From Pseudomonadota bacterium (GTDB taxonomy: Bacteria > Bdellovibrionota_B > Oligoflexia > Silvanigrellales > Silvanigrellaceae): DNA of 64,000 nt. The translations under genes were made by a program, and so were the position numbers. Location of the stretch: contig JBDLRP010000046.1 in the NCBI GenBank assembly GCA_039799905.1, positions 1-64,000 on the forward strand, in the 5' to 3' direction. A model generated the notes under the pieces. That model saw only the letters and a list, made by a program, of their open reading frames with translations. It was not told the DNA's origin and made no database searches. The stretch's first letter is position 1. Each line of letters starts with the position of its first letter. Shown one piece after another: positions 5,653 to 48,317 of this stretch.

Positions 5653-8600
5653 CTATTGCAGCGGGGCTGTGTCACCGGATTCGCCGCGGCTCTGTTGCGC
5701 GAACGAACGAATGCGCTCGGCAGTTTCCGCATCCGGTGCACCAAGGCTCAGAGCCTGCTCTGCCTGCGCGGCGAAGCTCTTCGTCTCTTGCTGCAAACGC
5801 TCGGCACCCTGTGAAATCTGCGCGCGGATTCCCTCAACGTCGGACGGATTCAAAGTGGGAGGAAGTTCAACTGCCAAAAGAATCTTTGCGACCTCTTCAG
5901 CGAGTTTTGCTGTCTCATAGTAGCCCGCTGAACAGTACTCGAGACCAGGAACCTCGCACGCAGCCAGGAACATTCCCTTGGCTCTGTCGTAGTCTACAAG
6001 GATTCCTTTGATCGCCTGCGGAAGATTTTTCTGGTTTTGAATATTGCGGTTGCGGATTGCAGGAGCATCAAGATAGGCGATGCTGTATTTGGCTTTGGCC
6101 TGCAGTCTGAATCCTTCTTGGGACACGGGCTTCAGGCTCAGCAAACGCGCAGCTGTTTTGCGCGCCAACGGTTCGACCCCCTGACGAAGCTGCACAAGAA
6201 GAATCTGCGAGCGCAGGTAAATCTCGTCATCGGCTGAGCCAATGAACTTCATCATCCGCTCGTATGATGCGATTGCTTCGGCGGGTCGACCAAACTTGAA
6301 GTATGTGTCCGCAATTTCCTTCGCAATCTTCAATTTTTCAGAGTTGCTGCTGAGCTGTCCCAAATAATTTTCATAGTGCGCAATCGAATTTGCAAAACGG
6401 CCGAGTGACTTGTGCATTTCAGCAGAACGCAGCCATGCGGTTCGCTTGATTCCGTCCTGTGGATACTTCTTTGCAAAGTCCTCATAATGCTTCGCGGCAC
6501 GAAGAAACTGCGCGATGCCGCGCGAGAGCTCCGCAGCTTGCCAGGTTGTTTCCTTCACGTAGCCGGAAGTGGGATACGCTTTCAGAAGCGTTTCCATCTG
6601 GGTGACTGCTGAATCGGTTTTCTTTGCCTGCAAGAAATTTCTCGCGGCTAGATCGAGAGCCGTCGCTGCATTTTGATGCTTCGGAAACTCCTTCTGGAAC
6701 GCCGCAAAACGATTGGCAGCAGCCTCGAACTGTCCCTGTGCGGACAATTGCTGCGCATGAGAATAAACCGCGTTTTCAACAATCACCTGCAAATTTCTGT
6801 GAACGGGCTTGCTCGGGACAATCTTCGCCCTCAGAGCAAGACGCGCAACCTTCTCAACATACGGCCAATCCTTCTTTTGTTCCGCAGACTCAAGAAGGTA
6901 ACTGACCGACTCGCTCGCATATTTGCTGCGTGGGTACTTTGAAAGCACATCATCAAATCTTTGCCGTGCGGGGTTCTCCTGACCAATGACATGGGTCATA
7001 TACGCAGCCTGAAAAACAGACTGTTCGAGTTCGGGTCCCGTCACAACGGATTTCATTTTATCGAGGGTCACAACGTACGCCTGCGCCATCTGCTCATCGC
7101 CATTGAGCTTGCGGTTGCGGACAAACTTGGGTTCTGCGGAAATCCCCAACAACGACTCGCGTGCACGCAACGAATAGCGCAACGCGGACAAAAGAACTGC
7201 CCGATCCTTAGTCTGTCCTGCAAGAGCATCGGCACGCATGGCAACATCACCTGCGCGTCTGCTCTTCCAGAGCAATTCAATCACCTTCAAGGTCCAATCT
7301 TCGCGTGCGGCATAGTCGGTCGAGTTTTGCACAAAAAAGTCATGCAACGAGACGAAACGCGCAATGCTCTCACCGTCGAGTTTGGACTGCGCCTGAGCGT
7401 GCGCAAGATTCTGTGTGTAGAGAATTCTCCCAGGGAGCTGGGTTCTCAAGATATCTCCGCTTTTGAACACTCGCTGCCACTGTGACTGACCGGATATCAG
7501 GTCGCGAGCCGCAAGATTGATGTCCAAGATGCGCAGCTCGAGATAGGCCTTGAATGAGTTTGAGTACTCGCCCAAATCCTGAATGTCGGCATAAATCTTG
7601 GCAGCGCGGCCGGGTTGTTTGGCAATGTTGTTCAATGCGACAGTCTCGCTGTAGTTGCGCGCGACGTCTAACGCGCCGGCACCCTGCATAGACTGAATCA
7701 CTTCGCCATCGACGTTCAAAGAATCACGCAACAGTGCGGCTTGCCTGAGACGACTGAGTACGCGGCCCAGCAGAGGTCCCGTTTTGCCATCCGAACGCTT
7801 GAATCGATCCATGTCCTTGAGCGCTTCCTGGTAAAGCGCGGTGGCTTGCCCATATTGTTTCTTTGCAAACGCAGCTTCACCGGACAAATACCTGAACGCT
7901 GCACGGGCACCTGCCTCGCTCGCACTGTTGGCGGCGAATTCCAGATTTCCAAAAGAACTCGTTGCTTTTCCAGATTCGTAATCGAGCACAATTCCAACCA
8001 GCGCAACGCTCTGTTGTTCGGCGGTTCGATTTTGTCCGACGAATCTCAGAGCCTCCTCACGTGCGCTGGGATCTCCCATTTTTAAACGAGACGTCAGTTG
8101 CAGCGAACGCAATGCGACGACCCGCTCATTTTTAGGAAATGATCTCGCCAATCCATCAATGGCATTGGTGAGTTGTCCGCGTACAGAGCGAGCGAAGTGG
8201 AAAAGATCCGGATAACGGCTGTCGGTTCCGCCTGTTGCCCGCAAATACTCTACGTATGTGGCTTGCTCCTCGAGAAGCTTCACGAGCCGCAGTCCGACAT
8301 TGAGCGACTGCTGAGATTTAGCTGGTTGGGCTTTATACTCTGTCTCGACCTGCCTGATTTGAACGGCGCGTGTTGCCGCCGCCTGTGCGCTGAGACTCAC
8401 GGCACCGAAATCGGCCCCGACGGCATCCACAAAGTAAATAGTTGCGGGATTCACTGGTGGCTTGAACAGGGGAGGGAAAGCCGGAGTCCAAACTGCATTG
8501 CCAGCCGGCGCAACGGGACGCGAAGACGATTTGGCCGCTTTGGCCGACAGGGATACGCCGCCTTGAGCCGATGCCGTGGGAATTTCAGCAATGCCCAGCC

Positions 8601-21564: not shown

Positions 21565-21595
21565 TTTTGAAGAGAAAATCAAAAGGCAGGAAAAG

Positions 21596-21781
21596 AGAAA
21601 CCCCAGATGAGAGGAAAAAGAGCACAGAGAAACCCACTTTTTTAAAGTGGGTGCCGCTGTCTGACTCTTCAGGCTTCCCTCAATCGCACAAAGTCGGAGG
21701 GCGTGCACACCGAGACAGTTTTGGCTCCCGTGTCTTACGTTGTAGGTTCACCGGCATATTAACCAAGCTCACCTGAGGCAT
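21596..21781 (-). ncRNA. ssrS: Probable 6S RNA
   Basis: ~185 nt; 5' GCCUCAGGUGAG pairs with 3' CUCAUCUGGGGU; contains GAACC..CACGGGAGC and GCGGCACCCAC..GUGGGUU motifs typical of 6S RNAs; has its own sigma70 promoter; ends approximate. Confidence 0.75.
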
Positions 21782-21785
21782 CCTC

Positions 21786-32444: not shown

Positions 32445-32532
<88 letters not shown>

Positions 32533-43151: not shown

Positions 43152-43239
43152 ACTGTAAAAGTCGTCCAAGTTAAATTGCACAATAATTGAAATTGAAATA
43201 AAGATACCACAAACCTTTGAAAAAATCGCAGGCGTAACA

Positions 43240-44181: not shown

Positions 44182-45216
44182 TTATGTCGGCTTAACGTAA
44201 GCGTGAATGGTTTGAGTCGGAAACGCAAAACCAATGCCATTGCGATCAAAGAATTCCTTAATCGCTAGATTCAATTGCTCTTTCAATTTCATGTATTCGC
44301 CGTAATCGGCGGATTCTATCCAGTAAACAAACTCAAGATCCAGCGAGAATGCAGAAAAATCGCTAAAGTTTCCTCGCTCCAGTCGCATCCCAGCCGTCTG
44401 TTCTATCAATCTGCAAACCTCGGCTCTTGCCAAATTTATTTGCGCAACCGACGAGTCGTAGGTCAAACCAATTCTGAGGACAACTCGACGCTGCCGCATT
44501 TTGCTATAATTTCTGATCCGTGTTTCGAGCAATATGCTATTGGGGAAGACAAGCAATTCTCCCGACAGCGACCTAATTCGAGTTGTCTTCAGACCAACAC
44601 GCTCTATTGTTCCCATGGAGTCATCAATGACTATGAATTCTCCGATTTTGAACGGCTTATCCAAAGCGATTGACAATGAGGCAAACAAGTCACCAAGAAT
44701 TTTCTGAACCGCGAGTGCGATTGCCACTCCCCCAATGCCAATTCCAGTAATCAACCCAGATACGTTGACACCGAGATTATCAAGAGTGATGAGAACCAAA
44801 AAACTAACTAGCAAAAATCGACTTACAGCGAGTGCGACTGTCCCTGTAGGCGACTGAACCGCTCTTCCGTCAACATCCTCAGAAAACTTTTCAAAGAGAA
44901 TTCGCTCAACAGCAGAGTTGAGAATTGCCGCACACTGAAATGCAATAGCAATCAGAAAGATTTGCCATACTCGCTTTTCAATTGACTGTGGAAAATCCAA
45001 AATATGAACCGTGGCATACACTGATGAGATGAAAATAAATACTTTACTTAATTTCTCAATCGAAAGCAGGAGCAGCTCAAGAGTGATGCCAGAAATAGGA
45101 AGACTCTTTCGTAGCAAAACCCGATTAATCAGCCAAACCACTGCATTAACCAGCAGAAATATAAACAGCGCTAGCCCAACCGGATACATTGCATTAAAAA
45201 TTGCTTGGCTAAACAT
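44182..45216 (-). CDS. MscS-family mechanosensitive channel
   Basis: GIGGVAIALAVQKILGD; DKPFKIGEFI; GLKTTRIRS; FAFPTQT; alternative starts 45237 and 45276. Confidence 0.92.
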   Translation of the reverse strand: MFSQAIFNAMYPVGLALFIFLLVNAVVWLINRVLLRKSLPISGITLELLLLSIEKLSKVFIFISSVYATVHILDFPQSIEKRVWQIFLIAIAFQCAAILNSAVERILFEKFSEDVDGRAVQSPTGTVALAVSRFLLVSFLVLITLDNLGVNVSGLITGIGIGGVAIALAVQKILGDLFASLSIALDKPFKIGEFIVIDDSMGTIERVGLKTTRIRSLSGELLVFPNSILLETRIRNYSKMRQRRVVLRIGLTYDSSVAQINLARAEVCRLIEQTAGMRLERGNFSDFSAFSLDLEFVYWIESADYGEYMKLKEQLNLAIKEFFDRNGIGFAFPTQTIHAYVKPT

Positions 45217-45287
45217 AAATTCGAAAACCTCACTCATGGGCAATAATGGAGTGCATAATATATTTTCAAATGCCATGTCCGAGGAAT

Positions 45288-45317
45288 AAAAAAACCCCAA
45301 TTCAAATGAATATGGGG
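45288..45317 (-). terminator. Intrinsic terminator within the mscS leader (candidate attenuator)
   Basis: Minus strand CCCCATATTCATTTGAATTGGGG followed by T7, upstream of mscS and in the same orientation. Confidence 0.65.
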
Positions 45318-45677
45318 CGAATGAAAGGAGGTCTTCTAGCGTGGAGCAGAGTCCCCAATCAAACTTACATTTGAGTAGTCATCATACTCCTAACAACCGG
45401 ACGACCTCGTAATGGTATAATGAGATATGTGTTCCTGCTGACCGTATATCAAAATCTTACAAATCACATAACTAATCCCTATCTTAAAAAAAGAAGACCA
45501 GTGTATGAATAATGCCAAAATGACAATAGTGAAGAAATGAATTACCGATTTATCATCTTTTGATATTGAAGTTCTGTGCACACATTTCATATAAATCGAA
45601 TACAAGTATTTGCGAATTCTCTTGCTATTTGATCATTGGCCGCATTTCTAATTATTCAGCACCTCGGAGTGCGCACA

Positions 45678-48317
45678 ATGTCAATGTCTATTTCCGAAAT
45701 TTCGAAACTAGACATATCCGACGTTCAACGCCACTGCTACTCGTCAGCAGTTGGGCTTACAAGCGCCGAAGCCGCACACAGGCTTCAGAAATTTGGCAAA
45801 AACATACTCCCCAGACGAACGCCAAAACCGCTTTACAAAATTATACTGGATCAATTTAAGAGCTCTATCATTTACATTCTGCTTGGTGCGGCATTATTTG
45901 CTCTGGCCATTGGCGAGTTTTTGGACGTTGTCTTTATTTTATTCGTATTATTTATCAATGCAGCGATCGGAACATATCATTCTTTCAAATCTGAGAGAAC
46001 AAACTTCTCCCTACAAAACATCTTAAAAACGAACTCAAAGGTCATCAGAGATCAGAATGTACTCACATTGTGTGCTGAAGACCTTGTCATTGGAGACGTG
46101 GTGATTCTCGATTCAGGCGCGACCGTACCTGCAGACATTCGAATTTTAAGTGCTCAAAACCTTTTTCTAGATGAATCGCTTTTGACCGGAGAGTCGGCTC
46201 CCGTGCAAAAGTATTACGATGAGTTGACGGAGCGAAGTAACATTCTTTTCGCTGGGACAATACTCACTCGCGGTCGGGCGAAGGGAATGGTGTTCCAAAC
46301 GGGAATTGATACAGCAATCGGGTCAATTGCTGGAATTGCGAGAGAAATTCAAGCAGGAAAGCCGCCGATAATAGAGCGTGTTGAGAAATTCAGCAAAGTT
46401 TTAACCTTATACATTCTCGTAATCTCAATAATAATAGTTCTGTATGGAATGCTCGTCCAAAACCAATCCGCAAAGGAAATGATCTACTTCTCAATTACAC
46501 TAGTTGTGTCGGCAATTCCTGAAGGCCTCCCGATAGCAATGACTCTAGCGTTTGCAGTTGCGACTAGACGAATGGCCAAGCGTGGAGTCATAGTAAAATC
46601 ACTTCCATCAGTTGAGGCTCTTGGCAGTTGCAATGTGATTGCAACCGATAAGACCGGCACACTGACTTGCAACGAACAGACAATTGAGCGAGTCACCGTC
46701 CCCGATTCCGATGAATTTGAAATCGGTGGGCGAGGATACCAACCCGAGGGAACAATCTCAGTTGGATGTCAGGTGATAGACCCGATTCACAGCTCGCTTA
46801 ATAGCATTGCTCGAGCTGCGGTCCTTTGTAATGAGGGGTTTCTTGGAAAACACAACGATGAATGGGTATGGAGCGGAGATCCAGTCGACATTGCCTTATT
46901 GACCTTCGGGGCTAAAGTCGGTTGGACGTCAACTTCAATCGAGAACCTTTACGTAAAGATGCAGGAGATCCCGTTTGAATCTGAAAACAGGTACTCGGCG
47001 GCACACTTCAAAACTCCAGAAGGAAACTTGATTGTCGCGAAAGGCTCGCCGGAACAAATTTTCAAGATGTGCGATAATTCACCACAAATATTTGAACTTA
47101 AAACTACTGCAGAAAAGTATGCAAAAGAGGGATATCGAACAGTCGCCCTCGCAGAGAGAACAACTTTAAGCTCAAGAAAAGTTGGAAATCTAGAAGACGA
47201 ACTTTCTGAACTTAAGCCCCTGGGAATTGTTGGGATGAAGGACCCATTAAGACCAGGAGCAAAATCGACTATCATGCGCTGCAAAAATGCCGGAATAAGA
47301 GTTCTGATGCTCACGGGTGATCATCCGGAAACAGCAAAGACAATCGCCTATGACCTTGGCCTTAGCAGCGGAGTGAATGGCATAGTAACCGGTGACAACC
47401 CCCAGTTGCAACTGAACTCAACCGCTGCGGAGATTATAAGAGGCAATTCGATATTTGCCCGAATCAGTCCAATGCAAAAACTGACAATCGTTCAAACTCT
47501 CGTAGCCGAAGGCAACTTTGTTGCAGTGACAGGCGACGGAGTGAATGATGTTCCCGCGTTACAGGCCGCAAACGTGGGTGTGGCTCTTGGAAAGAGCGGA
47601 ACCGATGCCGCGCGAGAGGCGGCAGGTATCGTAATCACTGATGACGACTTTTCTTCTATTGTGAATGGAATAGAGGAAGGGAGACTCGCATACTCAAACA
47701 TTCGTAAAATAATTCTGCTGTTGATTTCGACTGGGCTGGCAGAAGTTATTCTGGTGATTTTATCACAGTTCAGCGGCTTACCTCTGCCTTTACACCCAGT
47801 TCAGCTTCTATGGCTCAATCTTGTCACTAATGGTCTGCAAGATGTTGCGCTCGCGTTTGAGCCTCCTGAAGAAGACTTGCTGAAGCGAAAACCCCGTCCA
47901 CCCAATGAGCCGATCCTGGACAGAATTATGATGCGAAAGATTGCTATTTCATCGCTCACAATCGGCTTGTTGTCATTTCTCGCATTCCAACAAATCCTCA
48001 GTCGGACTCAGGACGTTACATTTTCGCAAAGTGCCGTACTTTTGCTTATGGTATTTTTTGAGAATGTACATGCAGCAAGTTGCCGGTCCGAACGAAAGTC
48101 TATTTTAAAAAATAGCTTAAAGAACAATCCACTTCTCATTATCACTATTCTCGGATCAACGCTGTTGCACCTTATCTTCGCAAACTCGATGCTTGGTCAA
48201 AAAGTTCTCAAAGTAACTCCAATACCCTGGGAAATGATCGTTCTGTTATTCATCTTTAGCTTGTTCTTACTCGTATCGACTGAGGGTGAGAAGTTCTTTT
48301 TTAGATCTCGAGGATAA
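45678..48317 (+). CDS. Cation-transporting P-type ATPase (P2A-like)
   Basis: TGES; IPEGLP; DKTGT; KGSPE; TGDGVND; LWLNLVTN. Confidence 0.93.
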   Translation: MSMSISEISKLDISDVQRHCYSSAVGLTSAEAAHRLQKFGKNILPRRTPKPLYKIILDQFKSSIIYILLGAALFALAIGEFLDVVFILFVLFINAAIGTYHSFKSERTNFSLQNILKTNSKVIRDQNVLTLCAEDLVIGDVVILDSGATVPADIRILSAQNLFLDESLLTGESAPVQKYYDELTERSNILFAGTILTRGRAKGMVFQTGIDTAIGSIAGIAREIQAGKPPIIERVEKFSKVLTLYILVISIIIVLYGMLVQNQSAKEMIYFSITLVVSAIPEGLPIAMTLAFAVATRRMAKRGVIVKSLPSVEALGSCNVIATDKTGTLTCNEQTIERVTVPDSDEFEIGGRGYQPEGTISVGCQVIDPIHSSLNSIARAAVLCNEGFLGKHNDEWVWSGDPVDIALLTFGAKVGWTSTSIENLYVKMQEIPFESENRYSAAHFKTPEGNLIVAKGSPEQIFKMCDNSPQIFELKTTAEKYAKEGYRTVALAERTTLSSRKVGNLEDELSELKPLGIVGMKDPLRPGAKSTIMRCKNAGIRVLMLTGDHPETAKTIAYDLGLSSGVNGIVTGDNPQLQLNSTAAEIIRGNSIFARISPMQKLTIVQTLVAEGNFVAVTGDGVNDVPALQAANVGVALGKSGTDAAREAAGIVITDDDFSSIVNGIEEGRLAYSNIRKIILLLISTGLAEVILVILSQFSGLPLPLHPVQLLWLNLVTNGLQDVALAFEPPEEDLLKRKPRPPNEPILDRIMMRKIAISSLTIGLLSFLAFQQILSRTQDVTFSQSAVLLLMVFFENVHAASCRSERKSILKNSLKNNPLLIITILGSTLLHLIFANSMLGQKVLKVTPIPWEMIVLLFIFSLFLLVSTEGEKFFFRSRG

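Follow-up and report, generated by a model that had tools for sequence, protein, structure and literature searches.

In the trp, his, and leu attenuators, four leader segments pair as 1:2, 2:3, and 3:4, and untranslated RNA terminates. The mgtL-mgtA system is a transporter leader under the control of an upstream ORF (uORF), and the ion-sensing riboswitches of Rfam include yybP-ykoY, crcB, M-box, c-di-AMP, nhaA-I/II, and DUF1646; riboswitch aptamers are usually widespread and repeated. In mdtU-mdtJI and speFL, ribosome pausing on the uORF relieves premature Rho-dependent termination, and mdtU, with 34 codons, is robustly translated; RNAs derived from 5′ UTRs can also act in trans (PMC7815308, in excerpt). 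The double-hairpin RNAs of RF02278 (Betaproteobacteria toxic small RNA) carry an unpaired CU-rich anti-Shine-Dalgarno (anti-SD) stretch and occur in 3–5 copies per genome (PMC5688073, in excerpt). Mobile terminators have been exapted upstream of genes, and a repeat-derived terminator cluster sometimes lies upstream of enterobacterial mscS (PMC2965389, in excerpt).

We analyzed a 64,000-nt stretch of DNA (hereafter, the window) in which a 461-nt intergenic gap separates mscS, on the minus strand, from a divergent P-type ATPase gene (Table 1). The gap holds a real and probably functional, lineage-restricted terminated RNA element. Its most plausible reading, which we put forward tentatively, is a default-off, ribosome-dependent transcription attenuator of mscS; the weights given here to five competing readings are a matter of judgement. 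In the attenuator model, a leader RNA of about 120 nt would start near 45410, would be co-transcribed with mscS, and would likely end by default at an intrinsic terminator 71 nt before the gene. A six-codon mini-ORF in the leader would be translated, and a ribosome dwelling on its last codons would open the predicted rod-like fold; the freed segment 2 would then capture the 5′ arm of the terminator, and mscS would be read. The inducing signal would most likely be slowed translation under salt or osmotic stress, because mscS lies in an osmotic/salt gene module and elongation in E. coli becomes slower under hyperosmotic conditions (PMC5821080, in excerpt). Among the papers listed by full-text and more general literature searches, we found no such control of mscS, apart from the enterobacterial terminator cluster described in excerpts of PMC2965389.

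Table 1. Features of the mscS leader and its surroundings (window coordinates).
Feature	Coordinates	Strand	Details
mscS-family mechanosensitive channel gene	44182..45216	minus	344 aa from ATG 45216; Pfam PF00924, PF21082, PF21088
Intrinsic terminator	45288..45318	minus	Stem GCCCCA/UGGGGU, one bulge; upper stem AUUC/GAAU; U7 follows
ACCUCCUUUC, 10 nt identical to part of the genome's own 16S rRNA tail (anti-SD)	45323..45332	minus	Perfect ribosome site on plus strand; 16S tail on contig C9
Predicted 81-nt irregular rod	45328..45408	minus	GAGGUC/GACCUC base, GGAGUA/UGCUCC middle, UCAAAU[GUAA]GUUUGA tip
23-codon hydrophilic ORF	45341..45412	plus	GTG start 8 nt after perfect SD; antisense to rod; pattern P 0.03 in shuffles
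Segment 2, near-copy of terminator 3′ arm, candidate antiterminator strand	45353..45363	minus	0/2000 shuffles; pairs with segment 3 only when upstream RNA is masked
AGGAG and six-codon mini-ORF MMTTQM (ORF 45385-45365)	45365..45391	minus	Present as sequence; overlaps segment 1 (45378-45369); stop 1 nt before segment 2
Extended -10, TGnTATAAT, facing P-type ATPase	45413..45421	plus	Shuffle P 0.043; overlaps CATTAT 45422-45417; function inferred
ATA-N9-TAT box	45468..45482		P 0.34 in intergenic region; stretch unaligned in 87% relative
Type II (Ca2+-ATPase-like) P-type ATPase gene	45678..48317	plus	Divergent from mscS; Pfam

Positions 36000-57000 form a low-GC osmotic/salt gene module, with a GC content of 41–47% over ~36–57 kb vs 52.6% for the genome. 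The module encodes a putative Na+/H+ antiporter, an SLC13-type symporter, a DUF389 protein, two LysR regulators, a DUF4301 protein, trehalose synthesis genes (otsB and otsA, the latter with a long N-terminal extension), a trehalase-like GH15 enzyme, mscS, and the P-type ATPase, whose top NCBIfam match, TIGR01522, scores under its cut-off. The LysR regulators are 50% identical to each other, and an NhaR identity was rejected for both, since they score far below the NhaR cut-off. LysR neighbors in 3 other genomes were not enough to yield an operator motif. The 12-nt stretch CCTTTGAAAAAA (43214-43225) is common to the DUF389 upstream regions of the window and of the same-genus genome G004 (L216 14100-14345) and may be a regulator site. 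Rfam finds only two RNAs in the whole window, a 6S RNA (21595-21783, minus strand) and a tRNA (32445-32529, plus strand), the tRNA gene lying ~3.5 kb ahead of the GC drop. The true start codon of mscS is uncertain: homologs favor 45216, and database gene calls give 45237 and 45276. The mscS frame remains open for 54 codons 5′ of ATG 45216 (45216-45378, minus strand), across the terminator and segment 2, for an open frame of 398 aa; relative to the mini-ORF, this extension is shifted by one base. Metagenomes with DNA of the element come from freshwater, aquatic, and lagoon settings, and four runs from four studies cover it.

A preliminary description of the locus had named five features, the strings of which we located at their coordinates. 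The best supported is the terminator. Its hairpin (45317-45295) is predicted at −12.0 kcal/mol (z −3.84), a value that 0/200 shuffles match, and seven T (45294-45288) follow directly on its 3′ side, with the mscS ATG 71 nt further on, close to the ~70 nt first described. The plus strand offers no U tract for the same hairpin. A consensus terminator scan found 0 terminators and leaves this hairpin, which has a bulge, unlisted. As a prediction, the terminator is solid, and it points toward mscS. In its own genome, such terminators occur in 31/576 gene-facing directions, a survey in which the mscS locus was recovered as a control. The description also noted a near-duplicate of the 3′ arm farther upstream, and this too is borne out: TTTGATTGGGG at 45363-45353 is an 11/12-nt copy of TTTGAATTGGGG at 45306-45295. 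A copy within one edit arises in 0/2000 dinucleotide shuffles of the 97 nt upstream, although the pattern was chosen post hoc, and among 23 terminators of the genome with enough upstream sequence, two have an upstream 3′-arm copy within 2 edits, the mscS locus being one of them. A bare upstream UGGGG (193/2000 shuffles) and a 5′-arm duplex of the observed strength (454/2000) are at chance level. The terminator and the duplicate arm constitute the signal, and the remaining features are weak on their own, because shuffle tests leave them common or borderline.

The predicted fold of the leader is an irregular rod, rather than the three-way junction first proposed. The rod alone reaches −28.4 kcal/mol (z −1.93), a borderline value that 30/500 shuffles equal; with the terminator, the energy is −40.4 kcal/mol (z −2.74), and all 15 best suboptimal folds retain the rod. 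For the plus strand, folding is at the level of shuffles (z −0.50). Forcing the junction gives −32.4 vs −40.4 kcal/mol, 8 worse, and the two hairpins that it would enclose (45389-45373 and 45356-45343) exist as strings, yet are absent from the best fold. The closing helix, GAGGTC (45408-45403) with GACCTC (45333-45328), does pair in this fold, as the base of the rod, but a 6-bp long-range helix appears in 402/2000 shuffles. Mutually exclusive antiterminator pairing, another element of the earlier proposal, holds only in part: an upstream partner strand exists, but it cannot compete in naked RNA. A nested antiterminator, with UGGGG laid onto CCCCA before the 3′ arm is made, has −17.6 to −19.2 vs −28.4 kcal/mol and is thus disfavored by about 10, and the probability that the terminator 5′ arm is captured is about 5e-6, lower than in 500/500 shuffles (median 0.49). 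The predicted default is therefore termination. Separately, a fold of the spacer 45210-45280 (minus strand) that closes over the start codon and SD of mscS (−19.6 kcal/mol, z −1.4) might be a second brake, acting on translation.

What could release the terminator is a ribosome. The AGGAG-led mini-ORF is present as sequence and, as first described, ends just before the duplicate arm. Its SD lies only 1 or 4 nt from an AUG, which is poor spacing; SD-led mini-ORFs are borderline in shuffles (93/2000 with a 5-nt SD, 81/400 with a 4-nt SD); and MMTTQM holds neither a run of regulatory codons nor a known arrest motif tied to mscS. A 71-codon hydrophobic ORF (45390-45605, minus strand) that ends at the mini-ORF's SD lacks an SD of its own, has no exact match in the protein collection, and is likely spurious. 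We modeled the ribosome as a mask of the RNA from its 5′ end and read the probability of segment 2:3 pairing. This is 0 without a mask, at most 0.25 for masks ending as far down as 45367, 0.29 at 45364, 0.43 at 45361, and 0.89 at 45358, then falls to 0.007 at 45355. With a footprint of +14 to +16, the on state requires codon 5 in the P site; with one of +12 to +14, it requires codon 6 there and the stop codon in the A site. The on window is no wider than one or two codons, and the choice of footprint decides its sign. Among 400 shuffles, 81 have a uORF, 12 are on when stalled and off at the stop, and 1 is also off when naked; the real sequence follows this strict off/on/off rule at +16 or more, whereas at +15 it departs from the rule, the value at the stop being 0.18 vs 0.10. 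Once the terminator 3′ arm is present, the terminator wins under every mask (P at least 0.989); control would therefore be purely kinetic. Of the two readings first suggested, a leader-peptide attenuator survives modeling, whereas for a new ion or osmolyte switch only the gene neighborhood hints at a ligand.

For the attenuator, the order of elements is classic: as in the trp, his, and leu leaders, a short ORF lies over segment 1 and stops just before segment 2, and segments 3:4 form the terminator. Unlike those leaders, the element has only six codons, no regulatory codon run, and a poor ribosome site, its downstream gene is a channel, and it is not conserved across species; two marks of membership, regulatory codons and conservation before orthologous genes, are thus missing. 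An early hairpin (45389-45373) may cover the SD and the first AUG, and the attenuator leaves the 10-nt anti-SD copy and the plus-strand ORF unexplained. As in mdtU, speFL, and mgtL, pausing near the end of a small uORF would relieve termination before a stress-related transporter; unlike in those Rho-dependent systems with longer ORFs, the terminator of the mscS leader is intrinsic and translation of its mini-ORF is putative.

Only one species and its close relatives have the element. Searches with its DNA against its own genome, 32 family genomes, 130 phylum genomes, and plasmids, and with nhmmer over 195 loci, returned short chance matches only. The three best phylum matches were discarded (one intergenic and lacking the 3′ arm, a second within a gene, and a third a lookalike of the terminator end at a gene start, without the 5′ arm), as was the one match of an 18-nt exact scan of viral contigs, the flanks of which are unrelated. 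A single-sequence covariance model, weak by construction (two identical rows), found 0 matches in 130 genomes and 0 significant ones in 15 chosen loci. The nearest MscS proteins are only 47–54% identical. In G004, mscS follows directly behind otsA, and in G009, another genome of the genus, it heads an operon with the P-type ATPase, behind 200 nt without likeness to the leader; local alignments to the upstream regions of G004, G009, and G093 give P 0.22–0.95. These arrangements show that the module has been reshuffled and that the leader is not part of it. Upstream of mscS in G009 (L217 1697-1904), two overlapping purine/pyrimidine hairpin options close to the start of the gene, without a U tract, are visible by eye, a possible separate translational control. 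Of 173 mscS homolog loci, some of them duplicates or kin, 148 have 300 nt of usable upstream sequence, and a terminator precedes mscS in two, neither of them alike (2/148, vs 31/576 gene-facing directions in the genome of the window). Among these loci, attenuation ahead of mscS homologs is not the rule.

Constraint is nevertheless suggested by a relative at 87% identity in mscS (37/277 differences), known from one contig of run X15 at a depth of 4.4. Here, 45298-45422 aligns gap-free with 21/125 differences, 45193-45297 and 45423-45500 do not align, and the alignment resumes from 45501. The block ends at 45298 and leaves out the U tract and the final three G of the 3′ arm. Such a gap-free block between non-aligning flanks marks the rod, the greater part of the terminator, and the −10 of the plus strand as more constrained than their surroundings; the mscS-side spacer and the LysR box are not. 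For the attenuator, the contrast between the kept block and the unaligned spacer toward mscS is a favorable sign. In closer strains the U tract appears to be kept, one base longer (an insertion at 45287 in X7; a loose end in X15). The single listed change inside the rod, at 45391 in both X15 contigs, keeps GGAG, is unpaired, and leaves the energy at −40.4 kcal/mol; it is also synonymous in the plus-strand ORF, and because it fits both, it does not separate the models.

A weak minus-strand −10 candidate, CATTAT (45422-45417), is predicted to start an RNA near 45410, and no consensus promoter was found on this strand between the terminator and mscS. A promoter model trained on the genome settled on an A-rich motif that is not a promoter, scored nothing above shuffles, and was discarded. 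The ATA-N9-TAT string, first described as a LysR-type box, is present but at chance level, and the sequence around it finds no alignment in the 87% relative. An inverted 20-nt repeat (45446-45465/45547-45566), 80% complementary and with T-N11-A spacing in each copy, offers rival candidates for a LysR site; its second copy falls inside a block kept in that relative. A −10-like core, TACACT, sits within 11 nt (45500-45510, minus strand) that recur in the region just before otsA in G004 (L216 about 7877-7887), and a whole-region alignment of window and G004 around it is not significant.

Almost as likely as the attenuator, and likewise no more than possible, is an independent small RNA (about 45410-45288) with constitutive termination and with mscS transcribed from a weak promoter of its own in the 71-nt spacer. 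Its targets would be other mRNAs, reached by way of the anti-SD stretch, or it would be antisense to the plus-strand ORF and act as its partner. The first reading of the locus had missed the ribosome site, the 23-codon ORF, and the extended −10 that overlap the element on the plus strand, and together the anti-SD copy and this ORF support the small-RNA and antisense alternatives. An exact 10-nt copy of the 16S tail stands just 5′ of the terminator, the rod and terminator fold well for their composition (z −2.74) and on the minus strand better than on the plus, the terminator is insulated better than in 500/500 shuffles, and the block 45298-45422 matches the extent of such an RNA; the 45391 change spares the peptide, and the sub-threshold Rfam likenesses are almost all to small RNAs with a terminator end of this kind. 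On the other side, the 10-mer carries modest weight because about 6 copies are expected by composition in a genome of this size (4 are present: one in the rRNA, two before long ORFs, and one here). In the rod, half of the anti-SD is base-paired, vs unpaired in RF02278 RNAs (PMC5688073, in excerpt), Hfq was not found in the 94% complete genome, no promoter was found in the mscS spacer, the promoter of the plus-strand ORF is only putative, and the 11/12 duplicate would not be needed. Membership in RF02278 itself can be dismissed: the element shares a CU-rich anti-SD stretch, placed immediately before a CCC/GGG terminator, and a weak likeness to the model, but scores 13.4 bits vs a gathering threshold of 50, is twice as long, has its ACCUC paired, and is single-copy.

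The antisense arrangement invites comparison with type I toxin-antitoxin pairs, in which the toxins are hydrophobic membrane peptides. A minus-strand RNA from 45410 to 45288 would cover the SD and nearly all of the ORF, and this coverage fits; the 23-aa product, rich in Ser, His, Asn, and Thr and hydrophilic, does not. A search for this product in 130 genomes yielded no true homolog: of 4 weak matches, the 3 inspected are off-frame or antisense to other genes.

A relic, or an insulating terminator left by shuffling of the module, is an unlikely alternative to both; the rod, duplicate arm, and short ORFs would then be by-products, for instance of an old 57-nt hairpin duplication. Three same-genus genomes carry the module genes in three different orders (G004:C79 and G009:C232 among them), the island is low in GC, several of the proposed features are at chance level, and the duplicate extends into loop bases that pairing does not require. 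Mobile terminators exapted upstream of genes provide a precedent (PMC2965389, in excerpt), and in the element, too, a terminator precedes a gene amid rearranged, low-GC DNA, but it shows no insertion-sequence remnant and has a single genomic copy. Against a relic stand the strand-specific folding and the gap-free block 45298-45422, conserved nearly like coding sequence between two unaligned flanks.

A new ligand-sensing ON riboswitch is improbable. The rod would serve as the aptamer, and a ligand would stabilize a pseudoknot of the internal-loop UGGGG with the terminator CCCCA, across a 10-nt linker; in the model, 45358-45353 can be released for only 3.7 kcal/mol while the remainder of the rod stays folded, and the rod has several purine-rich internal loops. 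Like the ion-sensing riboswitches of Rfam, the element is a structured leader with a terminator before a gene of ion or osmotic homeostasis, in a neighborhood of ion and osmolyte transport. Unlike them, it brings no Rfam family even to E 1: at three settings of Rfam 15 no family came near threshold and no riboswitch family appeared at E up to 10, and thus no known family covers the element or removes its novelty, and resemblances to yybP-ykoY, xanthine (NMT1), cobalamin, and box C/D RNAs were dropped. The same result agrees with the initial impression that no fluoride, Mn, c-di-AMP, or Na+/Li+ riboswitch consensus is present. A riboswitch, however, has to contend with the lack of a homolog in 130 genomes or 195 loci and with the nested antiterminator, about 10 kcal/mol worse. 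Least probable of the five is a protein-controlled attenuator in which, for example, CsrA would remodel the rod from two GGA sites (45390-45388 and 45354-45352): CsrA is encoded in the genome, both sites lie in or next to switching strands, and the 45391 change keeps the GGA, but the predicted fold pairs one GGA, neither is in a hairpin loop, and a protein bound at 45354-45352 would keep segment 2 blocked rather than release it.

With a range of one species and its close relatives, the element carries limited general weight, and as a small RNA or a relic it would be ordinary. Were it a riboswitch, it would represent a new class of ion or osmolyte sensor, switching on a channel within a stress module of trehalose, Na+ antiporter, and P-type ATPase genes. 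If the attenuator that we favor is the true reading, a mechanosensitive channel gene would be gated by the speed of ribosomes on a minimal ORF, which would give this bacterium a simple way to pre-load its safety valves under salt stress.
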